Virus record (IMG/VR): IMGVR_UViG_3300006040_000004
Location: 1-40,692 of that record
Direction: 5' to 3' (one strand)
Length of the DNA stretch: 40,692 bases
Source: a virus
Taxonomy: Duplodnaviria > Caudoviricetes
The position numbers and the translations under genes were made by a program. Within the stretch, counting starts at the first letter, position 1; each line of letters begins with the position of its first letter. Of the stretch, positions 2,964 to 29,731 are shown one piece after another. Below the pieces are notes generated by a model, which did not search any database, was not told the DNA's origin, and saw only the letters and a list, made by a program, of their open reading frames with translations.

Positions 2964-5281
2964 GCGGCGGAGTACGCCGCCATTGCCGCCGCGCCCGTTA
3001 GCGACCAGGAAAAGTGTCCCTCACGCACGTACAGCGTGGGGCGCTGGCCGTCGGGTTGCACGGGGTTATTGGTGCGCCCGTCTACCAGGCCGGGGTGTTT
3101 CACATACCCTAACCCCTCCAGGAGCGCACCGCGTTGGGCGCGTGGAACACTTCGTCCCGCTTGCATCTCCTTAAGCAGATGATCTAAAAAGTGTGATGAT
3201 GCCCACCCGTCCCGGAATCCTACACGCCCATTGTCCGCCGCGTGCAGTATCTCCTGTTCGATAGATGACCGGCTCAGTTGGATGGCCTCGCGCGTGCTGC
3301 TCGTCGTGGGTGCTTCGTGGCACGCCCCGGCGGGGTCGAACTCAGCGGCGATGGGGTACGAACGCAGGTAATCCGCCACCACCGAATACCCATACTTGGC
3401 GCCGTGCTTCGCGTACTTGTTGCGCCCCTCGAACCAGTCATACAGATCGGGGAAGTACGTCCCGCCCATGCCGTCCCGTATTTTATCAGCCTTAGACTGC
3501 TGTGCAGTGTATAGGATGCAGTAGCGGCGGTTATCGGTGTTGACGGGCACACCGTCCTTGTGGTTCGTACACATGAGGCCATTGGCGCGGTTGTCCCCCA
3601 TGACCTGATTCGCGCCCTTACCCTCGAACTGGATGCGGTCATTTGTGACCATCGCCTTGAACGCTTCCAGGAAGTCCCGACGGTGCGGGACATATATCTC
3701 CTCGATGCCTATAAATATTTTACGATCCAACCAGCTATTGAACTTTGCCCCGTTTTTCGCCATGTCGGCCACGTCCGGAAGGTGCGTATACCTGTGCCCG
3801 ACGGCATGGGACAGGCAGCGAATTACGGCGCTCTTACCGTTGCCCACGGTGCCCTGTAACACTGGCCAATACTGAAATTTACGCCCCGGATTTTGCACGA
3901 GTGAAGCGCAGTAACTCAGCAGGATTTCACGATCGCGGGGATCGGGTAGCATCTTCGTAATCAGGTTTACGAACGGCGCGGGGTCGCCGGAAACACTCAA
4001 TGTGTCCGTGGGAAGGTAGGTGTTAAACAGTATGCGCCCCTCTTCCTGCACCAGTGCGCCTGGTTCCAGTTCTGGACGGAAACACAACGAGTGCGCACGC
4101 GGGAACCGTAGCGCCTGGGACTGCGTAAAACACTCCCACGCCTTGCGGCTGCTGCGGGTGTTCGCGTCGTCCATCGTGTAATTAAATCCGCCGTACCGCA
4201 CGTTAAAGCGCGCTTCGTCCAATGTCGCGCCGTCGGGGGTGAAAATCAGATTACGATCTTCGACATACACGCAGCCTGCGAACACGGCGGCCTGCTGATC
4301 CACGTTTACGAACGTAGAACCCGACACAGGGGAGGGGGTGGCTGCGCCGGTAACGCGGATGCCTACCGATTCGGCGGGGGTGTCCTTACAGAAGGCTTTC
4401 TGCCCTGAACAGGCGAACAACACGGTACGGGTCAGGTAATCGTCCCGATCCCATTTTTCCCGCACCAGGCCAGAGGTGAGCATGATTCGGTGGATTCGTT
4501 CGCAGTCCCCACCCGTCCAGAACGCGAGGTGGCGCGCAAGGGCAGCGTCCGCCCCGCTGGCGTCGTAAGGGCGCTCGGGATCGGGAAACGCCGCACTGAG
4601 AGCGTCCACGTCTGCCGTCCAGAGTTGGTCGAACGAGGCGGTACGCCCGAACGCGCTGGAGGCGCTCTTACTGTTGCGCGCCCGGCGTATTAGGTCGGCG
4701 TCATCGGCGGGGCCGCGCCATTCGGGGTGAGGCGCGTCCGTCCAGGCAGGGAGCGCGCCTTCCGGTGCGTCAGGTACGGGGGCGAAATACTGTGTGACCA
4801 ACGCGGCCAGGGCGGCGGAACAGTCCAGCCCGGCGTCCCCGATGGCTTGATCGGTACGCCCGAACGCCACGAATCGGGAGGCGTGGTAAAACTCCAGGTG
4901 GTGCACGTCGTTCTTGCACTTGTGTGGGGGTATCGTCCCCGTGCCGATGATGTGCAGGCCACGCCCGGACTGCGAGACTTCCACGAACGCGCCAGCGAAC
5001 ATCGCGCACAGAGCCAGCGCGAGGGGCGACCACTTACCGTCCGGCTGGAGGCAGCTATCAATATCCAGGAGCCAGAACGGGTCGTTCTCGGTGAGGGCGA
5101 ACCCAACGAGAGGGCTATGTTCCCGCGCGTTTTCGTAGGTCGTCCAGATGCGTGGGTCTTGCGCGTCGGACACAGCTCCGGTGCCCCAGTCGGTGGGTTT
5201 TTTGTCCATCTTGCCCGCCGAACCAGCGCGGGGGACGAGCTTATAAGTGACGAATTGATGATATGGGAGGAGTGCATTCAT
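2930..5281 (-). CDS. Primase-polymerase / D5-like SF3 helicase fusion
   Basis: LDID and EVSQSGRGLH primase-polymerase motifs; Walker A QGTVGNGKS; TNH motif. Confidence 0.9.
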   Translation of the reverse strand: MNALLPYHQFVTYKLVPRAGSAGKMDKKPTDWGTGAVSDAQDPRIWTTYENAREHSPLVGFALTENDPFWLLDIDSCLQPDGKWSPLALALCAMFAGAFVEVSQSGRGLHIIGTGTIPPHKCKNDVHHLEFYHASRFVAFGRTDQAIGDAGLDCSAALAALVTQYFAPVPDAPEGALPAWTDAPHPEWRGPADDADLIRRARNSKSASSAFGRTASFDQLWTADVDALSAAFPDPERPYDASGADAALARHLAFWTGGDCERIHRIMLTSGLVREKWDRDDYLTRTVLFACSGQKAFCKDTPAESVGIRVTGAATPSPVSGSTFVNVDQQAAVFAGCVYVEDRNLIFTPDGATLDEARFNVRYGGFNYTMDDANTRSSRKAWECFTQSQALRFPRAHSLCFRPELEPGALVQEEGRILFNTYLPTDTLSVSGDPAPFVNLITKMLPDPRDREILLSYCASLVQNPGRKFQYWPVLQGTVGNGKSAVIRCLSHAVGHRYTHLPDVADMAKNGAKFNSWLDRKIFIGIEEIYVPHRRDFLEAFKAMVTNDRIQFEGKGANQVMGDNRANGLMCTNHKDGVPVNTDNRRYCILYTAQQSKADKIRDGMGGTYFPDLYDWFEGRNKYAKHGAKYGYSVVADYLRSYPIAAEFDPAGACHEAPTTSSTREAIQLSRSSIEQEILHAADNGRVGFRDGWASSHFLDHLLKEMQAGRSVPRAQRGALLEGLGYVKHPGLVDGRTNNPVQPDGQRPTLYVREGHFSWSLTGAAAMAAYSAAQGVFTLAAVK

Positions 5282-6228: not shown

Positions 6229-6530
6229 GTCCGTAGCGCCCGAATCGCCGCGCCCTTCAAGGCCGGGGATGCGGCCAGTGCCTTACTGTCCTTGGCGGCG
6301 AGTCCTTGCGCGAGTACCACCAGGTCACGCTCGGCGATGGCGGCGCTCATAATCGCACGCTTGAGCTGCGGCATGGTGGCGAAATAATATGACACCAGGG
6401 CCGGGCTGCACCCGTGCGCCGTGGCGAGCGCGTCACGGGTCACGCGGTCGTAGCCGACGGCGCGGGCGATTATCAGCGCGGCGGCGAGGAGTTCCCGCTT
6501 GTGTTCGATAGGGCGTTTACGTGTTCTCAC
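6225..6530 (-). CDS. TetR-like HTH protein
   Basis: LLAAALIIARAVGYDRVTRDALATAHGCSPALVSYYF; GTG start at 6530 after a G-rich RBS. Confidence 0.8.
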   Translation of the reverse strand: MRTRKRPIEHKRELLAAALIIARAVGYDRVTRDALATAHGCSPALVSYYFATMPQLKRAIMSAAIAERDLVVLAQGLAAKDSKALAASPALKGAAIRALRT

Positions 6531-6531
6531 T

Positions 6532-6912
6532 TTAAATCCCCCCAGTACTGAAAATGGCGTAACCACCCATCGAGTTTACCATGTCGGCCCATCGCCGCTG
6601 TCCTTGTTCGTGTTCATCCCCCGCCGACGGTTTCCACCCAGGCCGCTTAACCTCGATGCTCACGAACTGCCCGATTGTCGTCCCTACCATCGCTTGCGTG
6701 ATAAGTACGGGGCGTATGCCGATCAGATCGGCGCTACGGACGTGCGTACCTACGGCGGGGGAGTCGTTACACAACCCCCAGCGGATGAAATTCCCGTTCT
6801 CTAGTTTCCCCGCGCCCCGATTGTTCCTCCACACGCGCCACCCGGCGGCACTCGCCGCCAGGCGCACATCGGTAGTCACTGACGTTTCACTTAATCCCGT
6901 TTTAGTGTTCAT
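6532..6912 (-). CDS. VRR-NUC domain nuclease
   Basis: SET..., SADLIG, IEVKRP, EQGQRRW PD-(D/E)XK motifs. Confidence 0.85.
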   Translation of the reverse strand: MNTKTGLSETSVTTDVRLAASAAGWRVWRNNRGAGKLENGNFIRWGLCNDSPAVGTHVRSADLIGIRPVLITQAMVGTTIGQFVSIEVKRPGWKPSAGDEHEQGQRRWADMVNSMGGYAIFSTGGI

Positions 6913-6938
6913 TTTTTAATCCTGTTTTGGTGTAATCC

Positions 6939-6985
6939 CCGTGTTACGCACCATTTTTGGTGCCTAATACATGTTAGGCACCAAA
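6939..6985 (+). other. attI/dif-like recombination site 1: TTTGGTGCCTAA-TACATG-TTAGGCACCAAA with upstream GTTACGC box
   Basis: 12-bp perfect arms with 6-bp spacer; contains GTTAGGC core (6973-6979); GTTACGC at 6943-6949; caps cassette array 1. Confidence 0.6.
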
Positions 6986-7167
6986 CTAAATCCTGTGCGT
7001 CGTTCTTTCCCGTCTGTGTGAATTGCCTTCAGTAAGTACCTGCGCACCTTCCCGATGCCATCAACCGCGCATACGCCATTTGGTAGAATCTCAATAATTT
7101 CGAGCACCCTGTTCTTTCCCATGCGCGGGTCATTGTCTTTAATCTTGTCGCCAATTTTCAGCTCCAT
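6964..7167 (-). CDS. Cassette hypothetical protein (small, SH3/KOW-like beta protein)
   Basis: GAGGTGA RBS; LKIGDKIKDND; stop lies inside the palindromic site. Confidence 0.7.
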   Translation of the reverse strand: MELKIGDKIKDNDPRMGKNRVLEIIEILPNGVCAVDGIGKVRRYLLKAIHTDGKERRTGFSLVPNMY

Positions 7168-7191
7168 ATCTCACCTCTCTATAGTTAAAAC

Positions 7192-7254
7192 CCCTAACCC
7201 GGCGGTGAAGAGGGATCGCCCAAAAGCGGGCGACCCCTTACCTCTACGTTAGGG
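7192..7254 (+). other. attC site
   Basis: CCCTAAC...GTTAGGG with inner GTGAAGAGGGATCGCCC / GGGCGACCCCTTAC pairing. Confidence 0.85.
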
Positions 7255-7454
7255 CGCAGTTTCTTAGCTTCATCTGCTGCCCATAAAAACCATTGGCTAG
7301 GTGTCATAGCGTAGTATCCATTTGGACCTGTGTCAGAAAGTAATTCACCCAGACATTTGGCTGCAATCTCCCATGTTATTGGGTCACGCCCTAACCCGGC
7401 GGTGAAGAGGGACTGCCCGTCTGCGGGGCTTTTTACGTTCACTGGTTTATTCAT
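7194..7454 (-). CDS. Cassette hypothetical protein, overlapping two attC sites
   Basis: AAGGAG RBS and ATG 7454 lie inside the loop of the 7389-7511 attC; stop inside the 7192-7254 attC. Confidence 0.6.
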   Translation of the reverse strand: MNKPVNVKSPADGQSLFTAGLGRDPITWEIAAKCLGELLSDTGPNGYYAMTPSQWFLWAADEAKKLRPNVEVRGRPLLGDPSSPPG

Positions 7455-7511
7455 GCCCACTCCTTTTTTGTTAGTTCACTAATCGGGCAGCCCCTTACCT
7501 TGACGTTAGGC
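7389..7511 (+). other. attC site with long variable terminal loop
   Basis: CCCTAACCCGGCGGTGAAGAGGGACTGCCC ... GGGCAGCCCCTTACCTTGACGTTAGGC. Confidence 0.8.
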
Positions 7512-7709
7512 ACCACCCGGTGTGGTTTCGTCGATCTCTTTTATTATTGCTTCCATTTGTTCAACAATTTCACGGAATTCAATGATTGAATCAGATGCTT
7601 TTACTCTCACGTCTCCGAAATGTAAAAATATTCCACGCTCGACTATATCACCGTCTGAATCATAGTCATTTACTGAAAAATTAATGTTTTTTGGGTGCGC
7701 CATGTTCAT
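7506..7709 (-). CDS. Cassette hypothetical protein (acidic, 67 aa)
   Basis: Fills the space between two attC sites; stop TAA coincides with the GTTAGGC core. Confidence 0.75.
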   Translation of the reverse strand: MNMAHPKNINFSVNDYDSDGDIVERGIFLHFGDVRVKASDSIIEFREIVEQMEAIIKEIDETTPGGA

Positions 7710-7727
7710 ACCCTCTTTTAAGTTTCA

Positions 7728-7783
7728 GTCTAACGAGTCGTTGGAGCGCGACGGCTTCGCCGCGCCTCAACTATGCGTTAGGC
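7728..7783 (+). other. attC site
   Basis: GTCTAACGAGTCGTTGGAGCGCGACGGCTTCGCCGCGCCTCAACTATGCGTTAGGC. Confidence 0.9.
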
Positions 7784-8038
7784 ACCATTCTCCATGACGT
7801 ATTTTTTAGCATCATCCTTTGATACATCTACGCCATCCCAATCCAAATAAATAGTGTCGGCATTGCATTCGTCGATCATCTGGCAAATTAACTCTTTTTG
7901 CTCTGGCGTGTCGCGCTGCGTCATCGCTCCGGCGGACGCCCCAAGGGCAAAGTAACTTTTGAGAAGATCCCTGCCTTTTTCACTATTGAGATTCCATGCT
8001 TTCAGAGTTCCCCACTTTAGGGTAATATGGTCTTTCAT
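7778..8038 (-). CDS. Cassette hypothetical protein (LKWGTLKAW motif)
   Basis: GAGG RBS; stop coincides with the attC core. Confidence 0.8.
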   Translation of the reverse strand: MKDHITLKWGTLKAWNLNSEKGRDLLKSYFALGASAGAMTQRDTPEQKELICQMIDECNADTIYLDWDGVDVSKDDAKKYVMENGA

Positions 8039-8054
8039 TTCACTACCTCATTAT

Positions 8055-8111
8055 GCCTAACTTTTCGTCCAAGCGGACTGCTCCGCCGCCGCTTAACTCA
8101 CGGCGTTAGGC
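8055..8111 (+). other. attC site
   Basis: GCCTAACTTTTCGTCCAAGCGGACTGCTCCGCCGCCGCTTAACTCACGGCGTTAGGC; same layout as the aadA-type 59-base element top strand. Confidence 0.92.
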
Positions 8112-8117
8112 GTCAAT

Positions 8118-8468
8118 CTACCCATTTTCATTTCGGCATGGTGACGGGTTTTCATCAAACCGTACCGCCTTGATAGTTTTCTCTCCGGTCAGTATCGCCT
8201 TCATAATCCTGTGCCTTCCGTCCATTAATTCACCGTCTTCGTCAAGGATTATCGGCTTTGTTAAGTCGGCTTCATTAACCGCCCGCATATGCATGACCAT
8301 TTCCCGAAGTGTTAACTCTTTATAAGTATAAAAAACGTTCAAGTGGTCAATCGGAATCTCCATTACGGGCATCTCTCGCGCCAGCTCAAATAGTCTTGGA
8401 ACACTCCAAGAAAGCCGACCGAGCATACACATCTGATCTTTTGGGGCGAGCCATTTATCAATCTTCAT
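8118..8468 (-). CDS. Cassette ParB/Srx-like domain protein
   Basis: PIILDEDGELMDGRHRIMKA motif. Confidence 0.8.
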   Translation of the reverse strand: MKIDKWLAPKDQMCMLGRLSWSVPRLFELAREMPVMEIPIDHLNVFYTYKELTLREMVMHMRAVNEADLTKPIILDEDGELMDGRHRIMKAILTGEKTIKAVRFDENPSPCRNENG

Positions 8469-8481
8469 TCCAATACCCTAT

Positions 8482-8559
8482 GTCTAACACTACGTTTAAG
8501 GTTCGTTCGCTCCGCTCACCGGACTGGCTACGCCAGCCGCCTTAACTCAGGCGTTAGCC
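8482..8559 (+). other. attC site
   Basis: GTCTAACACTACGTTTAAGG ... CCTTAACTCAGGCGTTAGCC. Confidence 0.88.
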
Positions 8560-8590
8560 GCCACCAGCATCACCAGTGGCGGCAGGTCAG

Positions 8591-8815
8591 TTAGAAGAAA
8601 GTCGGTTGCGCCACGGCGCGGGTGAGCGCCATCAGGCCGGTCTGAAAATCAGTAGCGCCGATGCTGACCCACCGCTGATCAAGCCCTTCAGTTGAGCGGA
8701 GCTTTGCCACAAGCTCACCCAGCTCGGCTCCTTTAGTCTTGATCTCGTTCATTGCCGCAATCTCGGCTTCGTTCAGTTCGCGATAGCCCTTGATCTGTCT
8801 ATGTTGGTTTTCCAT
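8591..8815 (-). CDS. acb2: Anti-CBASS cyclic-oligonucleotide sponge, Acb2 family
   Basis: MENQHRQIKGYRELNEAEIAAMNEIK...RWVSIGATDFQTGLMALTRAVAQP matches the Acb2 family pattern (NQH..IKGYR.L..EI..MN..K; RW..IG.TD.QTG.MA..RA.AQP), recalled from knowledge. Confidence 0.9.
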   Translation of the reverse strand: MENQHRQIKGYRELNEAEIAAMNEIKTKGAELGELVAKLRSTEGLDQRWVSIGATDFQTGLMALTRAVAQPTFF

Positions 8816-8855
8816 TGCGCATCCTCTGTATTGTACCGCTGCATTATCGGGCGCA

Positions 8856-8890
8856 GCGGCGAAGCCGTCGCGTTGAACGCCGGGTTAGCC
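8856..8890 (-). other. Half attC site in inverted orientation
   Basis: Minus strand reads GGCTAACCCGGCGTTCAACGCGACGGCTTCGCCGC; the partner half is missing. Confidence 0.6.
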
Positions 8891-8899
8891 GCGCTTTAA

Positions 8900-9073
8900 C
8901 TATGTGATATACGCCAAATCATTGCGTGGTATTTTTTCCAAAAAGTCTTCACATTCCCGCATCGTTTCAAATCTGTTTCCGTCGATGTTTATTGACCCAT
9001 CTGAGTTTTGAGTGAGGTCAACGCCCCTGTTTTTGCATGGCTGACGCAAATTAAAGATAAAAATAGAATTCAT
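8900..9073 (-). CDS. Cassette hypothetical protein (57 aa)
   Basis: AAGGAG RBS before ATG 9073. Confidence 0.65.
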   Translation of the reverse strand: MNSIFIFNLRQPCKNRGVDLTQNSDGSINIDGNRFETMRECEDFLEKIPRNDLAYIT

Positions 9074-9089
9074 TGGTATTCTCCTTGCC

Positions 9090-9179
9090 GTATAACCCAA
9101 CATTCAAGCGGGACGCGCTTGAAGCGCCTGATGTTGTCTGGTCGGTCATTTATGCGCGCCCCTTAATTCTGCGTTATAC
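9090..9179 (+). other. attC site
   Basis: GTATAACCCAACATTCAAGCGGGACGCGC ... GCGCGCCCCTTAATTCTGCGTTATAC. Confidence 0.85.
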
Positions 9180-9661
9180 GTCATCAACACTTCGTCCAAG
9201 AGTCTCGGCGCAAGGGCTGTATGCTCGACCGAAACGCAGATGTATCTTTTATCGTCAATCGCTTTACTGTGAAGGTGTCCGTGCAGATTAGCCACGTATC
9301 TAGTTTCAAGTTGAGACGGATGCACCGGGACGTGTGTCAAAATGCACCCACGCAATTCTGCCGCACCAAAAATCTTGCCGAAGTATTGCTGGTAAATTTC
9401 AAGCGGGTAAACATCATGGTTGCCAAGCACCAATCGCTTTATGCCGTTTAGTTGTCCAAGAATAGTATGGTTATCCCGTCCGCCCATGAACACATCGCCC
9501 AAGTGCCAAACCGTGTCTTTTGGCTTTACTGTGGCATTCCACCGCTCAACCAAAACACGATCATGCTCTTCAATCGTGGCGAACGGACGATCCACGGGCT
9601 CAAATTCGATCACTTTTTTGTGGCCGAAATGGGTGTCCGAGATTACAAAAACTCTGTTCAT
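9146..9661 (-). CDS. Cassette calcineurin-like metallophosphoesterase
   Basis: SDTHFGH, LGD, GNHD, THVP, HGHLH motifs; C-terminus encoded by attC. Confidence 0.9.
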   Translation of the reverse strand: MNRVFVISDTHFGHKKVIEFEPVDRPFATIEEHDRVLVERWNATVKPKDTVWHLGDVFMGGRDNHTILGQLNGIKRLVLGNHDVYPLEIYQQYFGKIFGAAELRGCILTHVPVHPSQLETRYVANLHGHLHSKAIDDKRYICVSVEHTALAPRLLDEVLMTYNAELRGAHK

Positions 9662-9678
9662 AAAACTCCAAAAATGAC

Positions 9679-9705
9679 GTATACCCCTTAACTCAGGCGT
9701 TAGCC
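9679..9705 (+). other. Internally deleted attC
   Basis: GTATA joined directly to CCCCTTAACTCAGGCGTTAGCC; the right half matches the 8482-8559 site. Confidence 0.65.
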
Positions 9706-9709
9706 CCCA

Positions 9710-9886
9710 TCATCGCAGCCTGTACTCATAATAAACTTCAGAGCAGTGCACCGTGCTCGTCACGTCTAGAGTGCATGGGCGAATGGATATGATCTTCGTC
9801 GCACGCAACATGTTGACGTAGTGAAAAAGTTCCTCCATTGTGCTCCAATACACTTTCGCATTTCTGTAGCTAATTATTTCTGTCAC
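9710..9886 (-). CDS. Cassette hypothetical protein (58 aa)
   Basis: Not in ORF track; AGGGGG RBS, GTG start, MTEIISYRNAKVYWSTMEELFHYVNMLR... Confidence 0.55.
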   Translation of the reverse strand: MTEIISYRNAKVYWSTMEELFHYVNMLRATKIISIRPCTLDVTSTVHCSEVYYEYRLR

Positions 9887-9902
9887 ATCATCCCCCTATA
9901 GC

Positions 9903-9957
9903 CTCTAACCCAACATTGGAGCCGACCGCTACGCGTCGGCTCAACTATGCGTTATTC
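9903..9957 (+). other. Terminal attC of array 1, overlapping the helicase stop
   Basis: CTCTAACCCAACATTGGAGCCGACCGCTACGCGTCGGCTCAACTATGCGTTATTC. Confidence 0.85.
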
Positions 9958-11527
9958 TCCCCTTTAAAATCTCAGCGTCCGCACGGCCCAACGCCTGCGC
10001 ACTCGCCACATCTATGCCAAATTCGATATAAAACCGCCGTTGCGCGGCGCGTAGGTCGTCACCTTGCGCCCCACCCCAGATCGCCATCGCGCCCCGTAAC
10101 GCCTCTTGCGCTTCGGTCTTCTCCCGGTGGCGCTTCCGTACCGCCCCAATCACTTCAGGCGCCGCGCCGTAGGGTATAACGAGGGGTTTATCTATCTCGC
10201 CCCGTAGCCGTGCCAACGCTTCAGGGGACAGTTCGGCCAGATCGCCGTCCACATGTTCCGGGAGAGTGCGTAGCGCAGGCGTCCAGGCGAACCCACAATA
10301 CGGGCACGCGCTGAGGACTTTGTGGTACACCCCTGTGCACTCCACGCAGATGCGGGTCGGCGTGATCTCTACAGTTGAACGACTGCGGCGTTCTTGACGA
10401 TCCAGCGTCCATACGCGGGGGGAGTCGGGCAGGCCGTGCCGGTGGACGTTCCCCACGTGGTCGATAATAATTCCGCGTGTTTTCCCGTCCATCTTTCGTA
10501 ACGCCCGCCCGACCTGCTGTAGATATAGCGCCAGGCTGCACGTAGGGCGCGCCAGACTCACCACTTCGATCGCGGGTAAGTCGAACCCTTCCCCGAACAG
10601 ATCGACGTTGACCAGTTGTAGCAGCTCTCTCGCCCGGAGACGGCGTAGGATTTCCGCTCGCAGCGGCGCGGGTGTTTTGGCGCTCACGACTTCGGCGGGC
10701 ACTCCTGCCGCACGAAAGGCACTCGCCATTTCCGTGGCGCTCTCCACGTCTACGGTGAAAGTTATCCCGAGTTTCCCCGCCGCGATCCGCAGGTAATGCC
10801 CCACTATGTCGCCTACAATTGTGCGAGATGCGTGGACGGCGGCGGCTACGGCGGGAGGGCTAAAATCGCCACCTGCGCTTAACGGAATGTGAGACGTGTC
10901 AACATCGGAGGGCGGGGCGAATATCCGGTAGGATGACAGCCACCCTTCCTGCATGAGTTCCCGCGTTGTCGGCCCTTCCACCATGATGTCCAGTACCCCG
11001 TCCGCGTGTCGCCCCAAACCACGACCGTCCGCACGACGCGGCGTGGCGGTCACACCGAGACCCCGTGCGTTCGGGAACATGGAGACGGCGTTCCCCCACT
11101 TGTTGCCGCGTTGGAGGTGGTGCGCTTCGTCACACACCCACAGCCGTACCTGGGCGAACCAGGGGAGTTTCGCGTTCATCCTCACCAGCGTGTCCACCCC
11201 CGCCACGGCGCACCGAGCCTGGGGGTCTACAAAGTTACGGCCGGCGTCCCGAAGGTGGGCACGTGTACACTCTCGTGCCAGGTCAGGCGAGCCGATAATC
11301 CGGTGCTTGACCTCGTTTTGCGCGAGCGCCATACTGATCTGCCCCACTAGTTCCTGCCGATGCGCGATCGCTACGGACGCGCCGCGTTCCTCTCGGATGA
11401 GGTCAGAGAAAACTACAGTTTTGCCCCCGCCCGTCGGGATCACGAGCAGCACGTTCTGCGCGCCGTCACTCCACGCCGACAGAACGTCATGCTTCGCGTC
11501 TTGTTGGAAGGGGTACAGCGTTTTCAT
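9941..11527 (-). CDS. SF2 DEAH helicase with C-terminal zinc finger
   Basis: PTGGGKT, DEAHH, TATP, QQVGRALR, CVEC...CPYC. Confidence 0.93.
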   Translation of the reverse strand: MKTLYPFQQDAKHDVLSAWSDGAQNVLLVIPTGGGKTVVFSDLIREERGASVAIAHRQELVGQISMALAQNEVKHRIIGSPDLARECTRAHLRDAGRNFVDPQARCAVAGVDTLVRMNAKLPWFAQVRLWVCDEAHHLQRGNKWGNAVSMFPNARGLGVTATPRRADGRGLGRHADGVLDIMVEGPTTRELMQEGWLSSYRIFAPPSDVDTSHIPLSAGGDFSPPAVAAAVHASRTIVGDIVGHYLRIAAGKLGITFTVDVESATEMASAFRAAGVPAEVVSAKTPAPLRAEILRRLRARELLQLVNVDLFGEGFDLPAIEVVSLARPTCSLALYLQQVGRALRKMDGKTRGIIIDHVGNVHRHGLPDSPRVWTLDRQERRSRSTVEITPTRICVECTGVYHKVLSACPYCGFAWTPALRTLPEHVDGDLAELSPEALARLRGEIDKPLVIPYGAAPEVIGAVRKRHREKTEAQEALRGAMAIWGGAQGDDLRAAQRRFYIEFGIDVASAQALGRADAEILKGRITHS

Positions 11528-11539
11528 ATTTCTACCGCT

Positions 11540-11634
11540 ATTGACTTGTTCGTCAATATCCCACAGACTGCAAGCTCTGTCAAACGAATTATTTTTAACG
11601 ATTCGTACCGAGGGCTATTGACAACTCCGTCAGT
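11540..11634. promoter_or_regulatory. Candidate operators ATTGAC-N6-GTCA(A/G)T
   Basis: ATTGACTTGTTCGTCAAT (11540-11557) and ATTGACAACTCCGTCAGT (11617-11634), each overlapping one promoter. Confidence 0.55.
11555..11583 (-). promoter_or_regulatory. Sigma70-type promoter for the leftward operon
   Basis: TTGACA-17 bp-GATATT on the minus strand. Confidence 0.6.
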
Positions 11635-11646
11635 AACGATTATGGT
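11618..11646 (+). promoter_or_regulatory. Sigma70-type promoter for the rightward operon
   Basis: TTGACA-17 bp-TATGGT. Confidence 0.7.
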
Positions 11647-11681
11647 AGCGGCTCGGATTGACGAACTCTAGGAGACGAACG

Positions 11682-12323
11682 ATGAAGATTGAGATTGACA
11701 CGATGGTGGACAGCCCGGAGTACTTAGCTCTGTTGGCGGGCTTGTTGCGGGGTTTGGCGAAAGCAGGCTTCGCCCCGGTCGCTGACGATGATCCCGACGA
11801 AGACGACGGTGGCACCATACCCTCGTTTACATATGTGCCGCAGGAGATTCCGACCCCTAACCTCGTCCCGACGCCGCCCCTGCCGTCCGTACCGACACGC
11901 GTCGTGCCGAACCGTCCGCCCGTTTCCCTCGATCTCGCGGGGGATGTCGAACTGGATTCCGCTGGCGTGCCGTGGGACGGTCGCATCCACAGTGTGGGTA
12001 AGTCCAAGGTCGCGAACGGTACGTGGAGACTCCGCCGGGGCGTAGACCCCGACGTGGTGAAGTCCGCCGAGGCAGAACACCAATTCGCCCCGGTCGCACC
12101 GCCGCCGCCACCGCCAACCAGCGTGCCTTCTGTACCTGCCGCAGCGGTTATGTCGTTCGGCACACTGATGCAGCGCATTACCGCCCAAACGACAAGTGGC
12201 GAAAGGTCTCCCGGCGAAGTGGCCGCCGCGCTCCGTGAGGCCGGACTCCCCACAATCCCAGTACTGGCGACACGCCCCGACCTGATCGGTCAAGCCGCGC
12301 ACGCTTTGGGGTTCGCGTTATGA
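11682..12323 (+). CDS. Pro-rich phage hypothetical protein
   Basis: AGGAG RBS; DSAGVPWDGRIHS...GTWRLRRGV; lies upstream of the DUF2800-like nuclease. Confidence 0.75.
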   Translation: MKIEIDTMVDSPEYLALLAGLLRGLAKAGFAPVADDDPDEDDGGTIPSFTYVPQEIPTPNLVPTPPLPSVPTRVVPNRPPVSLDLAGDVELDSAGVPWDGRIHSVGKSKVANGTWRLRRGVDPDVVKSAEAEHQFAPVAPPPPPPTSVPSVPAAAVMSFGTLMQRITAQTTSGERSPGEVAAALREAGLPTIPVLATRPDLIGQAAHALGFAL

Positions 12324-13438
12324 TCCAAGAGCATGCAATTCTCGCGCCATCAAGTGCGCATCGGTGGGTGCAGTGCCCTGGGTCGGTCGCCATGGAGGCG
12401 GCGTTCCCGGAGCTTGAAGAGTCCGAATCCGCCAAGGAGGGCACGGCGGCGCATTGGGTGTGCGAACAGACTTTCATCGGGAGTCCCCCGGCGGAGGGTT
12501 CCCTCGCCCCGAACGGTATGGCCGTCACGGGTGAAATGCTCGACGGTGCGGAGGTTTGGTGCGCAACGATGCCGACCCGCCACGCCCCCTTCCCCATCCA
12601 TATCGAGCGGCGCGTTGACTGTCCCCGGATTCATTCGGAGTGTTGGGGCACGCCGGACGCATTTTACTTCGACGAAGACGCAGGGGTTGTTGCGATCCGG
12701 GATTACAAATTCGGGCACCGCCACGTGCCGGTCTACGAGAACCAGCAGCTCATGACCTACGCGGCGGGCATCCTCGATCACCTCCAGATTAACGGGTTCA
12801 CCGAACAATCCACCACGGTTGAGTTCGTCGTTGTGCAACCGCGCGATTTCCACGCGGACGGCCCGGTGCGGACGTGGCGGATCAATGCTTCGGCACTACG
12901 GGGATATTTCAACATCCTGACAGGCAAGGCCATCGAAGCGATGGGGCTGGAGGCACGTCTGGTGCCAAGCCCCGACGCGTGCCGGGACTGCAAGGCGCGC
13001 CACGCCTGCGTTGCCGCGCAGACCGAGGCGGCTGGCGCGCTGGACACAGTGTACGGCCACGTCATGCCGCGCACTCCGTCCCCCGTCGAGATGGGGAAGA
13101 TGCTCCAAAAACTTGACGCGGCGATCGACATGGCGAAAGCCTACCGATCCGGTCTCGAAGAGGAAGCGAAGCAGATCATCCGTCGTGGCGAACGTGTGCC
13201 GGGGTGGAGTCTGCAAGCGGGGCAGGGCAGGGAACGGTGGGCACGCCCCATCGGGGAAGTCATCGCACTGGGCGAAATGATGGGCATCAGTGTGTCCCAA
13301 CCCGGCGCGATTACCCCTAAACAGGCGATTAAAGCAGGTCTTTCGGCGGAGGTCGTCCGGGCGTATTCGGAGACCCCCACTGGAGAAGTAAAACTCGTTC
13401 CTATGGAACGTATCGAGTTCAACCAAGGAGTAAATTAA
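12320..13438 (+). CDS. DUF2800 / Cas4-like PD-(D/E)XK exonuclease
   Basis: HAILAPSSAHRWVQCPGS, EGTAAH, WGTPD, DYKFG, QLMTYA, C..C..C. Confidence 0.88.
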   Translation: MIQEHAILAPSSAHRWVQCPGSVAMEAAFPELEESESAKEGTAAHWVCEQTFIGSPPAEGSLAPNGMAVTGEMLDGAEVWCATMPTRHAPFPIHIERRVDCPRIHSECWGTPDAFYFDEDAGVVAIRDYKFGHRHVPVYENQQLMTYAAGILDHLQINGFTEQSTTVEFVVVQPRDFHADGPVRTWRINASALRGYFNILTGKAIEAMGLEARLVPSPDACRDCKARHACVAAQTEAAGALDTVYGHVMPRTPSPVEMGKMLQKLDAAIDMAKAYRSGLEEEAKQIIRRGERVPGWSLQAGQGRERWARPIGEVIALGEMMGISVSQPGAITPKQAIKAGLSAEVVRAYSETPTGEVKLVPMERIEFNQGVN

Positions 13439-13439
13439 C

Positions 13440-14330
13440 ATGACACAAGTAATATTCCCCGTAGGCAGAATGGTCGGTGGCGACCTGTACACCCTGGAGC
13501 CGGTCGTAGACAAACACGGTGTTCAGAAAATCAACAAAGCCGGACAGCCGTCTTTTTCGTGTTCGGTCGGTGTGGCTATCAAAAAAGGTGCCGAGGCGCA
13601 CTGGGCGGAGACGGCCTGGGGTACGGAGATCCACAGCATTGGAAAGGCAGGATACCCTCAGGAACACGCGTCCCCTTTCTTTGCATGGAAAATCAAGGAC
13701 GGTGATTCCCTCGTGCCCAATAAGAAAGGGCGCGTAGCGAGGGATAACGAGAACTACCGAGGGCACTGGATCGTCTGGTTTAGCCAGAGCTGGTTGCCTG
13801 CTTTGTTCGCGCGGGTGGCTACGGGCAAACTGCGGGAATTGGGGTTGACTGAAAAAGTGCGACTTGGTGACTACCTCCAGGTACAAGGCGACATCAAGGA
13901 TAATCGCCCCAGTGAGTCACCGGGGGTGTACCTGAACCCGTCGGCAGTTCTGTTCGTCGGGGAAGGAGAACGTATCGCTTCTGAGGTGGACGTAAGCGCG
14001 CTTGAATCGGCACCCGCTGCCGCCCTGCCCCCTGGCGCCCGTCCCCTGACGCCTGCCGTGGCTGGATTCGGTGCGCCCGCTGCCGCCCTGCCCCCTGGCG
14101 CCCGTCCCCTGACGCCTGCCGTGGCTGGATTCGGTGCGCCCGCTGCCGTGGCTCCCCCTGTAGTCGTGCCGAACCCTGCGTTCCTCCAGGTGCCACCGCC
14201 CGCCCCACGCCCTCCCGCCGTACCTGCCGCACGGGTTATGACCCCCGCCGCGCAAGGTGCGACTTACGCTCAGATGATCGAAGCTGGGTGGACTGAGGAG
14301 TTGTTGGTACAGCACGGAATGGTGGCATAA
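13440..14330 (+). CDS. Single-stranded DNA-binding protein (DUF2815-like)
   Basis: Position between nuclease and polymerase; WKIKDGD, PGVYLN motifs. Confidence 0.75.
   Translation: MTQVIFPVGRMVGGDLYTLEPVVDKHGVQKINKAGQPSFSCSVGVAIKKGAEAHWAETAWGTEIHSIGKAGYPQEHASPFFAWKIKDGDSLVPNKKGRVARDNENYRGHWIVWFSQSWLPALFARVATGKLRELGLTEKVRLGDYLQVQGDIKDNRPSESPGVYLNPSAVLFVGEGERIASEVDVSALESAPAAALPPGARPLTPAVAGFGAPAAALPPGARPLTPAVAGFGAPAAVAPPVVVPNPAFLQVPPPAPRPPAVPAARVMTPAAQGATYAQMIEAGWTEELLVQHGMVA
14013..14148 (+). repeat. 63-bp perfect tandem duplication in the SSB tail
   Basis: PAAALPPGARPLTPAVAGFGA twice, plus a partial third copy. Confidence 0.9.
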
Positions 14331-14331
14331 C

Positions 14332-16524
14332 GTGACAAACCGAACCGCCTCCATCGACTTCGAGACGTACTCCGAGGCGGGGTACGTCTGGGCCGGGAAA
14401 TGGGGAGCGCTTCCTGGTGCGTCGCAGGGCAAGAAAGGACTCGGGGTGGTGGGAACCTCCGTTTACTCGGAACACCCCAGTACTGAAGTTCTCACCATGT
14501 CCTACGACATTGGAGACGGTTCGCGTAACTGGCAACCGGGGGCACTCCCTCCGGTCGCTCTTTTTGCACACATTCGAGGGGGTGGCATCGTTAAAGCGTG
14601 GAACACCCGCTTCGAATACCTAATTTGGAATAACGTGTGCGTGCCGAAGTACGGCTGGCCGCCGTTACCCTTGAGTCAATTAAGGGACACGATGGCGAAG
14701 TCTCGGGCGCACGCGTTACCCGGCAAGCTGGGCAAGGCCGCAGAAGTCCTCGGTCTTACCGAACAGAAAGACCCAGACGGCGACCGACTGATTAAAAAAT
14801 TCAGTATGCCGCGCAACCCGACAAAGAAAGACCCGCGCACGCGAATACGGCTCATGAGCGAACCCGTCGATGGCCCCCTCATGCTCGCGTACTGTGACCA
14901 GGACGTGCGGGCGGAAGCCGCAGCAGACGTGGCGATCCCCGACCTGTCCGCCGCTGAGACGGAGGTGTGGCTGCTCGACCAAGAGATCAACGAACGGGGC
15001 GTGATGCTCGACATGGACGGCGTGCAGAGCTGCATCGCCGTGATCGAACAGGCGCACGCTCAGTACAACGAGGAACTGCGCGCACTGACGGGCGGTACGG
15101 TGTCTCGTGCCAGCGAACTCCAGAAACTCATCGGCTGGCTGGGAGCGCAGGGCGTACACACTGAGAGTCTCGATGAGGAACATCTGTCCGAGTTGCTGCG
15201 GGCGCCTGAGTTGCTGCCCCCGCAAGCCCGACGCGCCCTTGAGATACGGGAGGCCATCGGTAGCGCCGCCGTGAAGAAGGTATTCGCCATGCGGAACGCG
15301 GTGTCGAAGGACGGACACCTTCGCGATCTCTACCTGTACCACGGCGCGCGCACTGGGCGGGTAACGGGCGCGGGCGCACAGCCGACCAACATGCCCAACA
15401 GTGCGGGGGTCTACGCCACACGGTGCGAGGCGTGCGAACGCCACTACGGGGCGGGGATCAAGGACTGCCCGTGGTGCGGCTGCTCCGGCGACCTGTCCCA
15501 CCAGGTAGAATGGGGTGTGCCCGCCGCGCAGGACGCACTGGAGGTGATCGGCACACAGAACCTTAACGCAGTGGAGCATTTCTACGGCGACGCCATGCAG
15601 GCCGTCTCCGGCTGTCTACGCAGTCTGTTCGTCGCCGCGCCCGGCCACGACCTGATCTGTTCGGACTACTCCAGCATCGAGGCGGTCGTACTCGCCATGC
15701 TGTCCGGGGAACCGTGGCGCATCGACGTGTTCAGGACGCACGGGAAGATTTACGAAATGTCCGCCGCGAAGATCGCAGGCGTTTCGTTCGAGGCCATGCT
15801 TGAACACAAGAAAACAACCGGGCAACACCACCCCCTCCGCAAGCTGGGCAAGGTGGCAGAACTCGCCAGCGGCTACCAGGGGTGGATCGGGTCGTGGGTG
15901 CAGTTCGGTGCGGACGAGTTCTTGCCCGAGGAAGAAATAAAAACGGCGATCCTCGCTTGGCGTGCGGCGAGTCCGGCGATCGTGGAGCTATGGGGCGGGC
16001 AGGAGCGTAACTGGCAACCGGAGCTGTTCGGCGTGGAGGGCGCGTTCATCACCGCCATGCAGTACCCCGGTCGCGTCTTCTTCGTGCGGGGCCTGCGGTT
16101 TCGGATGTGGGGAGACGCGGTATATATCCGACTGCCCTCGGGACGGGAGCTGACGTACCATCGGCCACGTCTAGGGCCGAGTGACCGACGACCTGGCACG
16201 TACGCCATCAGTTTCGAGGGGTGGAACAGTAATCCCAAGAACGGCCCCGTCGGCTGGATAGTCCTGCGGACGTGGGGTGGTCGTCTGGTGGAGAACGTCG
16301 TACAGGCCATCGCACGGGATATTCAGTGGCACGGCCTCCTGGCGTTACGTGCGGCAGGGTATCCTACGGTTCTCCACGTCTACGACGAGAACGTGTGCGA
16401 GGTACCGGAGGGGTTTGGCAGTATCGAAGAGCTCGAGGCGATCATGGGCCGGATGCCCGAGTGGGCGGCGGATTGGCCGATTCGGGCACAGGGTGGATGG
16501 CGCGGTAAGAGGTATCGTAAATGA
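14332..16524 (+). CDS. Family A DNA polymerase with 3'-5' exonuclease
   Basis: IDFET, TGR, SDYSSIEA, RKLGKVAELASGYQG, HVYDE. Confidence 0.93.
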   Translation: MTNRTASIDFETYSEAGYVWAGKWGALPGASQGKKGLGVVGTSVYSEHPSTEVLTMSYDIGDGSRNWQPGALPPVALFAHIRGGGIVKAWNTRFEYLIWNNVCVPKYGWPPLPLSQLRDTMAKSRAHALPGKLGKAAEVLGLTEQKDPDGDRLIKKFSMPRNPTKKDPRTRIRLMSEPVDGPLMLAYCDQDVRAEAAADVAIPDLSAAETEVWLLDQEINERGVMLDMDGVQSCIAVIEQAHAQYNEELRALTGGTVSRASELQKLIGWLGAQGVHTESLDEEHLSELLRAPELLPPQARRALEIREAIGSAAVKKVFAMRNAVSKDGHLRDLYLYHGARTGRVTGAGAQPTNMPNSAGVYATRCEACERHYGAGIKDCPWCGCSGDLSHQVEWGVPAAQDALEVIGTQNLNAVEHFYGDAMQAVSGCLRSLFVAAPGHDLICSDYSSIEAVVLAMLSGEPWRIDVFRTHGKIYEMSAAKIAGVSFEAMLEHKKTTGQHHPLRKLGKVAELASGYQGWIGSWVQFGADEFLPEEEIKTAILAWRAASPAIVELWGGQERNWQPELFGVEGAFITAMQYPGRVFFVRGLRFRMWGDAVYIRLPSGRELTYHRPRLGPSDRRPGTYAISFEGWNSNPKNGPVGWIVLRTWGGRLVENVVQAIARDIQWHGLLALRAAGYPTVLHVYDENVCEVPEGFGSIEELEAIMGRMPEWAADWPIRAQGGWRGKRYRK

Positions 16525-16733
16525 TTAAAAACACAATGGTTCAAATAACGGCGTTATTCCCCGGTAAACACAAGATGTTCCTCGCGGGGTACTTTCACGG
16601 TTCCAACGGGTTCGCCGCGCACCAACTGAACGTCATACGGTCGCCGAGACGCCGCGAGGAACGTGAGGAATACCAGAAGGGGCATTCGGCGGGACGCCGC
16701 GAGGAACGTGAGGCGTACTACGCCGTGTTATAA
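16521..16733 (+). CDS. Hypothetical protein containing a 21-bp internal direct repeat
   Basis: ATGA overlap; GACGCCGCGAGGAACGTGAGG at 16648 and 16693. Confidence 0.6.
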   Translation: MIKNTMVQITALFPGKHKMFLAGYFHGSNGFAAHQLNVIRSPRRREEREEYQKGHSAGRREEREAYYAVL

Positions 16734-16748
16734 GACTTGGAGATAGAT

Positions 16749-17156
16749 ATGAATGCAGTTGTGATTGACGGGGTGCGGTACGTCACCGATCCGATGCACG
16801 CGGACGAGGTGAAGTTTTACTACATGCACGATAACCACACCTTTTCCAGATTGACCGGAGCCACCATTGATGAGGTGCTGGCTTCCGCTGACGCGATGGC
16901 AAAGGAAAGCCGTTGCGGGATGCTTTGCCCGCCGATGCTCTTGGCTGGAGGAAAAGAGGTGCGCCGCCTGAAAGCCGGTGCGCACGCGCCATGCTGCGGC
17001 AGCGACGACAGCAAATGGCTGACCGGGGTAGCAGAGTGGCGGACGGAATGCGAAGCGGACAGCGACGTGCGGCGGCTGGTGTCTTCTAACGCAGAATTGA
17101 GCCGCGACGTAGTCGTCGGCTCGGATATTGGGTTATGCAACGAGGGTAATGAATGA
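16749..17156 (+). CDS. Cassette-like hypothetical protein
   Basis: GGAG RBS; C-terminus SNAELSR... is read through an attC. Confidence 0.75.
   Translation: MNAVVIDGVRYVTDPMHADEVKFYYMHDNHTFSRLTGATIDEVLASADAMAKESRCGMLCPPMLLAGGKEVRRLKAGAHAPCCGSDDSKWLTGVAEWRTECEADSDVRRLVSSNAELSRDVVVGSDIGLCNEGNE
17084..17138 (-). other. attC site (top strand on minus)
   Basis: Minus strand GCATAACCCAATATCCGAGCCGACGACTACGTCGCGGCTCAATTCTGCGTTAGAA. Confidence 0.85.
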
Positions 17157-17365
17157 ATAAGATTCTGGCTTTCCCGGCGAGTACAACACTCACGGTTGGG
17201 CAGGCGCTCGATAGCGCAAACGGGATGCGCGAGCTGCTTACGGACGTGCTGATAGCCGGGTACGACGCTGACGGGGATTTGTATGTTCGATCCTCACGGA
17301 TGGATCGTAAGGACGCTTTGTGGCTGGCAGAGCAGTTGAAAAAGTACGCACTTGATGGTGCCTAA
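17153..17365 (+). CDS. Cassette hypothetical protein (70 aa)
   Basis: GAGG RBS; ends GGTGCCTAA like cassettes 7506-7709 and 7778-8038. Confidence 0.75.
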   Translation: MNKILAFPASTTLTVGQALDSANGMRELLTDVLIAGYDADGDLYVRSSRMDRKDALWLAEQLKKYALDGA

Positions 17366-17398
17366 TACATGTTAGGCACCACTTGGGGTGTAACACGG
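17356..17398. other. attI/dif-like recombination site 2
   Basis: TGGTGCCTAATACATGTTAGGCACCA identical to 6958-6983; outer GTAACACGG mirrors CCGTGTTAC of site 1. Confidence 0.6.
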
Positions 17399-28457: not shown

Positions 28458-28480
28458 TGGTTATCCCTCTGCCGTAGGTG

Positions 28481-28552
28481 CTACACCCACCACTACACCC
28501 ACCACTACACCCACCACTACACCCACCACTACACCCACCACTACACCCACCA
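28481..28552. repeat. 12-bp tandem repeat CTACACCCACCA x6
   Basis: Read directly; on the minus strand it is TGGTGGGTGTAG (WWV-stop). Confidence 0.95.
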
Positions 28553-29731
28553 CTGCTGCGGCTGCTGCGGCTGCTGCGGCTGCTGCTGTTGATAGTAATT
28601 CCCCAACATCTGACTTCCGGCGGTCAATACCGTTCCCCACGGGCTGATCTGGTTCACATCCTGCATCGTCCTCGCGGCGCCCTCCATGCCTCGACCGAGC
28701 AACATCCCGGACTGGGCGGACGCCGCCGTGCCTTTCGCGCCGATGTTGATGCCTTGATCCAGCGCGTTCTGCCCGAGACCTTCGATATATGAAGCCCCAC
28801 CGAGAGCCGTGGAATACGGGGTATATGCGTCCCGCTGAACCCCGTACATGCTGCTCAACATGTCACCGCCTGCCCCGACCATACCGCTGCCGAACCGAGC
28901 GTAGTCCATCCCGCCCCGCGTGGCGTCCGCCGCCATACCTAAATCCTGCTGTTGCAACGAGTTGTAGTACGCTGCCATTTCGGGGTTCGCAGCCATCTGC
29001 CCGGCGTTCCCGCCGATAGCCAGGCCGCCTCGACCTTGTGCCTGTAGCTGGGCACGGAGATCGGCTAATTGGTTGGCTCTCGGAGCCGCCAGCAACGCCT
29101 GCTGCTCCTGCATGTACTTGGCGGCCTGCTGCTGTGGCGTGGTGCCCAAGTACCCCTGGCCGAGAGTCATCATCGTTCCTGCGGCCTGCCCCATCGGAGC
29201 GGTGGCGGCCTGGGAATTGGTGAATTGTGATAAGAAGCTGCTCTCCTGTCGTTTTTTTCTTTCAGCAACCGCAGCGTCATAAGCGGCCTGCCCGCCCGGT
29301 AGTCTCGCTGCTACGGCAGGAGTTCCGGGAGTTCCGTAGAACCCAGATGCCCCCACGGCTGCCAAGAGCCCCGAGGACGCCTTTCCCCGCCTCGCGGCTA
29401 CGGCGGGAGTTCCGGGAGTTTCAAAGTAATCTGCGTAATTGGGTGCTGCGCCACCGCCCGCAGCCATCATCAACCCCTCTTGCTGGGAACGAAGATCGGG
29501 GGACAGGTCGTACCTCGCAGAGTTCAGATTACCTTTATCGTCATACCCGAAACGCGACGCGCCAAAGTTGGTGGTCACACCCATGGGACGGAATTTCGCG
29601 GCATCGGCGGCGATTCTTGCCGCCTGTAACTGCGCGTCGGCGCTGGTTTCCGCAGCCCCTTGCGCGGCTTCCCCTTGCAGGTACCCCCCGACCAAAGCCC
29701 CTCCAGCAACAGCAACAGCAACCCAAGCCAT
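28541..29731 (-). CDS. Internal virion / DNA pilot-like protein
   Basis: MAWVAVAVAGGALVGG N-terminus; Gln/Ala/Gly-rich. Confidence 0.7.
   Translation of the reverse strand: MAWVAVAVAGGALVGGYLQGEAAQGAAETSADAQLQAARIAADAAKFRPMGVTTNFGASRFGYDDKGNLNSARYDLSPDLRSQQEGLMMAAGGGAAPNYADYFETPGTPAVAARRGKASSGLLAAVGASGFYGTPGTPAVAARLPGGQAAYDAAVAERKKRQESSFLSQFTNSQAATAPMGQAAGTMMTLGQGYLGTTPQQQAAKYMQEQQALLAAPRANQLADLRAQLQAQGRGGLAIGGNAGQMAANPEMAAYYNSLQQQDLGMAADATRGGMDYARFGSGMVGAGGDMLSSMYGVQRDAYTPYSTALGGASYIEGLGQNALDQGINIGAKGTAASAQSGMLLGRGMEGAARTMQDVNQISPWGTVLTAGSQMLGNYYQQQQPQQPQQPQQWWV

Follow-up and report, generated by a model that had tools for sequence, protein, structure and literature searches.

Why do the open reading frames (ORFs) in two attC arrays of a phage genome all lie on the strand opposite to that used by ordinary integron cassettes? 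In integron theory, the strand selectivity of recombination serves to place cassette genes in the sense orientation behind the cassette promoter, Pc (Nivina et al., 2016, PMC5027507). The window, meaning the whole 40,692-bp stretch analyzed, is the virus record IMGVR_UViG_3300006040_000004 (Caudoviricetes), rated 100% complete, and a sequence-only reading of it had proposed that its cassette ORFs are antisense to their attC sites. The analysis described here indicates that the window probably holds two integron-type arrays with genes on the attC bottom strand and attI-type ends, likely built or reshuffled by a borrowed integron integrase. A literature search, with most subscription papers outside its reach, returned no paper on antisense phage cassettes.

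The attC sites were detected by a box-and-fold scan, and their strand was assigned from the 5-nt spacer and the extra L'' base. E values below are from a covariance model built from 27 bacterial attCs that follow sense genes.

7192–7254, top strand +: attC; 82% matches in bacterial genomes; E 2.2 only
7389–7511, top strand +: long attC, 123 nt; box-and-fold scan, missed by the model
7728–7783, top strand +: attC; E 3e-5
8055–8111, top strand +: aadB-like attC; E 3e-8
8482–8559, top strand +: attC; E 2e-5
8831–8890, strand ambiguous: degenerate attC, R'' lost; weak model match on −, E 1.7
9090–9179, top strand +: attC; E 2e-3
9675–9705, +: collapsed attC, a shortened R'' joined to L'-spacer-R', judged from sequence; of the stretch 9658–9705, R'' and the right half are left
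9903–9957, top strand +: last attC of array 1, provides the helicase stop codon (9941–9943); E 9e-5
17084–17138, top strand −: array 2 attC; E 2e-4

The spacer and extra L'' base lie on + in all seven intact array 1 sites (7192–9957) and on − in the site at 17084–17138. These eight intact sites show the anatomy expected of attC (R''/R' and L''/L' boxes, extrahelical bases, asymmetry), and six of them are significant in the covariance model, five from array 1 on + (E 3e-8 to 2e-3) and the array 2 site on −. The model is weak on 7192–7254 and blind to 7389–7511. Where both strands received model scores, + was higher (30.7 versus 16.6 bits and 28.8 versus 12.3 bits). The aadB attC aligns with 8055–8116 (+) at 82% identity, and in that match aadB lies on + and intI1 on −. 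When both strands were folded, the inferred bottom strand gave the more stable structure in 8/8 intact sites, by 0.9–3.0 kcal/mol, the same direction as reported for attC sites in PMC5027507. Anatomy, the model and folding, with the aadB match in array 1, bear out the sequence-only reading for array 1 (attCs on +, ORFs on −) and for array 2 (attC on −, ORFs on +); the outcome that could have overturned it, a covariance model placing the attCs on the ORF strand, did not occur. A short contig of run X3 holds an attC 90% similar to 9904–9954, which diverges directly after the crossover box.

Genes were called with a self-trained caller, which was checked on the annotated records L081 and L082 and was wrong there for two short ORFs.

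6964–7167, −: cassette 1 ORF, 67 amino acids (aa); called with a ribosome-binding site (RBS); runs through the R box, stop in the attI L box; rival 65-aa ORF on +
7194–7454, −: cassette 2 ORF, 86 aa; RBS and start inside the long attC; reads through attC 7192–7254
7506–7703, −: cassette 3 ORF, 65–67 aa; stop TAA in R' box; no family match
7778–8038, −: cassette 4 ORF, 86 aa; stop TAA in R' box; 83% identical homolog in an antisense array (L140)
8118–8468, −: cassette 5 ORF, 116 aa, ParB-like according to one phage annotation; phrog_17560; 75 viral homologs
8591–8815, −: cassette 6 ORF, 74 aa, Acb2/Tad1-family protein, likely anti-defence; PF24729 and PDB matches
8900–9073, −: cassette 7 ORF, 57–67 aa; gene caller
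9146–9661, −: cassette 8 ORF, 171 aa, metallophosphoesterase; phrog_547, PF00149; stop inside an attC loop
9710–9838, −: cassette 9 ORF, 42–58 aa; 51% homolog in L021
16749–17156, +: 135-aa ORF reading through the array 2 attC; gene caller
17153–17365, +: array 2 cassette ORF, 70 aa; phrog_11040; stop TAA in the second attI-like core

All nine array 1 ORFs were called on − and both array 2 ORFs on +, so that every ORF occupies the bottom strand of its attC and not, as in a classical sense cassette, the top strand. The longest ORF lies on − in 9/9 array 1 units, with a margin of just 67 versus 65 aa in the first. Homologs or family matches support five array 1 ORFs and the last array 2 ORF; cassettes 1, 2, 3 and 7 come from the gene caller, and cassette 1 has no viral relative and no homolog beyond this phage. 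An identical 10-nt sequence comes directly after the crossover at 6973, 7505, 7777 and 17371; a favoured target or a shared origin of the four may account for it.

To set this polarity in context, one top-strand attC pattern was scanned in viral and bacterial collections (48 and 3 of 64 parts; 127 and 158 loci, respectively), which left 123 viral and 329 bacterial sites after de-duplication. At the viral sites, the gene that precedes R'' on the upstream side is antisense in 93 cases and sense in 13 (11 uncalled, 6 cut off), whereas at the bacterial sites it is antisense in 17 and sense in 256 (49 uncalled, 7 cut off). Counted per record with both flanks, 96 of the 111 viral records were antisense, 11 sense and 4 tied, compared with 8 antisense, 96 sense and 10 tied among 114 bacterial records. 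Per locus, a Fisher test gave p 2e-30. A caller-free comparison of open frames of at least 50 codons (R'' stop versus reverse R' stop) gave 37 versus 56 of 109 for viral and 149 versus 73 of 296 for bacterial sites, the same direction as the gene calls, although weaker. The bacterial antisense arrays L229, L268 and L272 are prophages, as judged by neighbouring genes. On phage contig L102 a sense cassette with a 125-aa ORF (3557–4058) lies amid antisense cassettes, which shows that cassette pools of the two polarities can mix. Antisense polarity is a widespread rule among phage cassettes, not a universal one. The counts uphold the earlier proposals that typical cassettes are sense and that a phage-adapted antisense class exists.

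Movement of these units was traced by all-against-all BLAST, which revealed cassettes common to unrelated phages. One cassette occurs in five viral contexts at 85–99.7% identity with boundaries at G|TT; the similarity begins at G|TT, covers the reversed gene together with its preceding attC, and breaks off at the next G|TT. Two further shared cassettes have the same boundaries, and the array 2 gene family occurs in two contexts with the break at AA|C. Because the shared cassettes end at G|TT, the moving unit is a normal integrase cassette with its gene reversed. Units with G|TT bounds and their own attC, the hallmarks of an integron cassette, are therefore found in other phages, and the exchange among them shows that phage cassettes are mobile. 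No window cassette was found near-identical in other phages. Among 16 pairs from 6 families with a common top-strand upstream flank, the attC body is kept in 4 families; 3/3 pairs with only the downstream flank in common have different attC bodies. Top-strand ("mirror") recombination as a rule is ruled out by the cassette ends, with the exceptions given below. At 64/136 cassette starts, the gene terminates at the TAA that forms part of the crossover box. In the window itself, array 1 (3 kb) is absent from the close relatives L012–L016, L018 and L019, and since helicase and nuclease adjoin there, array 1 is an insertion. Relatives of the helicase were tried as a source of array variants and set aside: 79 other loci are without an attC array and gave 2 weak detector matches only.

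The arrays might instead be a frozen relic, made of former integrase cassettes that are now immobile and serve as a plain operon in this phage. The missing intI, the decay of two sites, the overlap of ORFs with attCs (beginning or ending within them, or running across them), and the lack of variants in four contig sets are in keeping with such a state, which is compatible on origin with the reading of integron-type arrays. Set against this, 7/9 array 1 sites remain intact, as does the attI core; other phages, mostly ones without intI, exchange cassettes in near-identical form; and rare variants are lost from contigs. A relic is therefore considered unlikely.

Both arrays end at sites with an attI-type core.

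6924–6983, +: attI-type entry site of array 1; core 6958–6983 near-palindromic; predicted crossover G6973/T6974
17356–17394, −: second attI-like site; 26-nt core identical to 6958–6983 and in direct orientation, despite the opposite facing of array 2

The 26-nt core at 6958–6983 resembles bacterial sites (L277, L562) that lie 135–160 nt from a divergent intI, and its best bacterial match is in a Trichlorobacter genome (L277). This match to intI-linked sites agrees with the proposal that the cassette ORFs run toward an attI-like end. CTA at −9 to −7 before G|TTA was found at 13/69 cassette starts without a detected preceding attC (12 viral, 1 prophage), against a background of 54/7301 GTTA. A metagenome scan for the core returned 30 loci, 2 of which are this phage; three have a divergent intI at 142, 158 and 737 nt, one of them apparently L277 DNA, and sense ORFs come next at many of the 30 loci. 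The second site is read as attI because homologs of the array 2 gene end antisense cassettes at attI-like sites (L673 and L674, 69% identity); its core may have been inverted or otherwise changed. The attI-type site of a complete integron appears, from its sequence, to be present at 6958, with an atypical second site, and the intI of a complete integron is lacking; with at least two attCs and no intI beside them, the window qualifies as a cluster of attC sites lacking an integrase (CALIN).

Several other observations concern these sites. At L533, L535, L538, L541, L542, L550, L551, L553 and L554 an attI-type core is followed by sense ORFs, some with attC, and no intI match in the flanking DNA available; at L546 and L549 the core is followed by opposite-strand genes, and these are probably further phage-type arrays. 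Phage contig L098 has two identical attI-like sites (1890 and 3052, −), each of at least 75 nt and 1162 nt apart, a pair that recalls attI-flanked cassettes (PMC12901181). The identical direct-repeat cores 6958–6983 and 17356–17381 bracket 10.4 kb of replication genes, and recombination between them would excise the block. A terminator identity of the 26-nt palindromes was rejected, as no terminator-like call falls at their positions. An Xer/dif-like identity was abandoned after the attI match, an exact-arm scan having found 3 other loci, zero with attC. The upstream boxes resemble attI1 DR1/DR2 (same 7-mer, 19-nt spacing), a resemblance only, which is not clearly common to other loci of the type.

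Where, then, would the integrase come from? The TIGR02249 integron-integrase model gave 0 matches across the complete phage record, no integrase was present among the 56 window proteins scanned against families, and the nuclease gene occupies the place where intI would be expected. Integron integrases are nevertheless present in related phages. A profile scan of viral contigs left 80 IntI-like loci; eight were hand-picked for the TIGR02249 test and 8/8 passed, all amid phage genes and six beside a separate phage integrase. In these phages intI is a late gene of the operon, preceded by several genes in the same direction, and the attCs upstream of it are oriented relative to intI as in ordinary integrons. 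The attC model matches near phage intI (E up to 0.5) comprise 35 antisense, 8 sense and 4 uncalled; by locus, 21/27 with attC matches are antisense, and 53 loci are without a match. Full IntI was found in 0/19 near-complete attC-bearing viral records, and the larger attC-bearing records (n = 37) include one full and one internally deleted copy. The latter, a 144-aa ORF at L141:2825–3256 (−), has the IntI N- and C-terminal parts only, is located between an antisense cassette, which it directly follows, and the xis and int genes, and is, on its sequence, an internally deleted phage integron integrase. The intI-bearing L607 and L106 have a 95% identical cassette end in common. These findings support a phage integron that an operon promoter transcribes in the reverse direction and whose integrase is, as a rule, provided from outside.

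The polarity most likely results from the layout of the platform. A different cause would be strand exposure, in which replication or transcription bares the coding strand, so that sites with their bottom strand there recombine best and accumulate. Bottom strands on the lagging-strand template do fold and recombine more (PMC5371416), and both arrays diverge from one central region. The intI-attI layout, however, accounts for the polarity without exposure; exposure leaves the attI position unexplained and presupposes a particular origin and fork direction in this phage. It is accordingly rated less probable than a relic.

Under the reading of integron-type arrays, a borrowed integrase, of host origin or from a phage infecting the same cell, would recombine the bottom strand as usual, the unit being G|TT, reversed gene and attC, and new units would enter at attI. 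In phages that keep intI, it lies just past attI on the operon coding strand, as in any integron. A phage promoter would read the array backwards, so only bottom-strand genes would be expressed, and selection would stock the array with common accessory genes of phages, a good number of which serve anti-defence. The present phage would retain attI, whereas intI would have disappeared or would never have been there. Its arrays may be expressed from candidate promoters between the two operons.

9941–11527, −: DNA helicase, phrog_16, first gene of the leftward operon
11555–11646, both strands: pair of divergent promoter-like sites from which transcription of the two arrays is predicted; consensus match only
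11682–16524, +: rightward operon of an ORF, exonuclease, single-stranded DNA-binding protein (SSB) and DNA polymerase

The sigma-70-like candidates at 11555–11583 (−) and 11618–11646 (+) are the top two of seven matches (10/12 positions); seven is near the chance expectation (mean 4.9), and the promoters are therefore candidates only. A crude scan for Pc upstream of attI (6400–6970) found no sigma-70-like match. It follows from the geometry that phage cassettes are predicted to be silent from Pc. The arrangement could act as a one-way filter: sense cassettes of the host, which are often anti-phage, would not be expressed in the phage, nor would those of the phage be expressed from Pc.

Phages likely keep their own gene pool, swapped with a borrowed integron enzyme. 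A broader proposal, offered tentatively and with somewhat less than even confidence, is a widespread mirror-image integron system, in which phage promoters read attI-headed arrays in reverse, the integrase comes from some phages and is borrowed by most, phage genes are packaged into new cassettes, and polarity serves as a firewall. If so, the firewall would silence captured host defence cassettes and express anti-defence ones, and phages would hold a second pool of cassettes, in which cassette formation could be followed in a tractable setting.

A number of observations weigh against these readings. Two of the nine array 1 attCs are decayed (8831–8890 and 9675–9705), and cassettes 1, 3 and 7 are without homolog support. 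At the second attI-like site, read on −, the upstream box is like that of the first, but the crossover G is an A. Some cassettes have older or exchanged attC bodies: the body is replaced in 2/6 cassette families, and the window's attC is matched more closely in L378 by the site downstream of the gene than by the upstream one. Contigs of 4/10 sequencing runs contained no joint or variant of the arrays, although contigs drop rare variants, and L001 and the metagenome contig are 100% identical and so reveal no array variation. The bacterial control, 3/64 collection parts, is rich in Xanthomonadales. Among the viral records 11/111 are sense, part of them evident bacterial integrons with intI (L089, L120), and the array of phage TJE1 (L532, 244–1519) is sense, with three sites top + like the genes. 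Finally, the reason given for the direction in which the platform faces is a presumed one.

The sequence-only reading had suggested that host integrons might act as a reservoir of phage genes, with the reversed cassettes silent in host integrons and picked up by phages. The attC and attI sequences are of host type, 12/23 bacterial antisense calls lie outside prophage-like loci, and the L102 array mixes both polarities. The searches, which used small samples (401 genomes of one order for array 1 DNA and Acb2, 401 of the phylum for ParB-like proteins), nevertheless went the other way. Array 1 DNA matched 26 of the 401 genomes of the order, all matches being <70 nt with no whole cassette, and plasmids held no whole window cassette. 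Homologs of Acb2 were present in 8/401 genomes of the order, with attC beside 0/7 checked (genome G593 is counted in the tallies over the order and excluded from the attC follow-up), and ParB-like homologs in 4/401 genomes of the phylum, none with attC. The window proteins had no match in the 158 bacterial attC loci, the bacterial loci matched by 143 phage antisense-cassette proteins were prophages only, 0/7 tested non-prophage antisense ORFs matched a phage family, and cargo homologs are mostly plain phage genes without attC. A host reservoir was thus not borne out, and it is regarded as improbable, more so than strand exposure. Least credible of all is that the hairpins, placed between genes of one operon on the better-folding strand, are RNA processing or stability signals or chance folds and not recombination sites, given the aadB identity, a detector that found 3 matches in shuffled DNA versus 12 real (10 from this phage), cassette exchange at G|TT, and the recombination of phage attCs with IntI1 (PMC9892861).

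The cargo is consistent with phage accessory functions. The cassette 6 protein matches Pfam PF24729 (E 7e-18, 65.1 bits versus a curated cut-off of 27) and the p26 structures 8h2j and 8ixz in PDB (E 1e-15 and 5e-15), and so belongs to the Acb2/Tad1 family by sequence, with a likely anti-defence role. Proteins of this family act as sponges that bind immune signalling nucleotides. In a survey of 100 of the 143 phage antisense-cassette proteins (two copies of one cassette excluded) and 100 of 286 bacterial ones, 36/100 and 11/100, respectively, matched PHROGs. DNA-modification or anti-restriction functions accounted for 21 of the 36 (14 methyltransferases, 4 Mom-like, 2 PAPS-reductase-like and 1 Lar-like); methyltransferases among the bacterial proteins were zero. 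The TJE1 CALIN also carries a methyltransferase cassette. In other phages, attC lies beside the gene in at least 3/74 loci of ParB-like homologs (one weak) and just upstream in at least 3/79 loci of Acb2 homologs, all antisense; both counts are lower bounds, the covariance model favouring one attC type.

Compared with known systems, the phage system is a variant of the integron and not a new recombination chemistry. It has in common with class 1 and sedentary chromosomal integrons the attC anatomy, strand asymmetry, G|TT crossover and attI core register, together with an IntI family in related phages whose intI lies on the bottom strand beside attI. Unlike in those integrons, the window genes are on the bottom strand and read toward attI from a distant phage promoter, intI is lacking, attC stands ahead of the gene and the cargo consists of phage genes. 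Phage CALINs (Qi et al., 2023, PMC9892861) are likewise attC clusters without intI, with methyltransferases among their cassettes, and 5/6 phage attCs recombined with attI1; antisense genes, the retained attI-type site and the ~100 viral records distinguish the present case, TJE1 of that study being sense. A word search found "antisense", "opposite" and "reverse" absent from the main text of that paper. Inverted cassettes produced by top-strand recombination (PMC5027507) also have the gene against the array, but there gene and attC turn together, whereas the window attCs keep the array polarity and the gene alone is reversed. Insertions at attG (Loot et al., bioRxiv 10.1101/2022.09.11.507474) are like some phage cassettes at G|TT without a preceding attC or attI (L092, L122); because attG insertion has no strand bias in E. 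coli, it alone cannot give uniform antisense polarity. Integron anti-phage defence cassettes (bioRxiv 10.1101/2024.07.02.601686) similarly place cassettes in phage-host conflict, of which the window is the mirror image, on the phage side, with anti-defence and DNA-modification cargo.

To integron specialists, a phage-wide class with the same sites but reversed genes would be a surprise. It provides a sequence rule by which anti-defence genes of phages can be searched for, namely as ORFs lying antisense to an attC, and tools assuming sense cassettes would misread such arrays. It also bears on cassette origin, as members of the same gene families are found both inside cassettes and as plain phage genes.

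In the remainder of the genome, PHROG family matches place primase, methyltransferase, nuclease, helicase, exonuclease, SSB and DNA polymerase on the left side and lysis, tail, head, portal and terminase genes on the right. The associated sequencing runs are sediment metagenomes, and one metagenome contig (L534, L543; 41,418 bp), which exceeds the window by 726 bp, matches it at 100% identity across the two arrays. An Rfam search of the window gave no match. A repeated leader ending in the start codon precedes several early genes and SSB (641–667, 1403–1443, 1569–1609 and 13410–13443). Coding repeats are present at 1889–2194 (9-nt units in a 211-aa ORF), 14010–14135 (a 63-nt duplication in SSB), 28469–28564 (12-nt units) and 33920–34512 (seven 66–75-nt units in a 569-aa structural-region protein).

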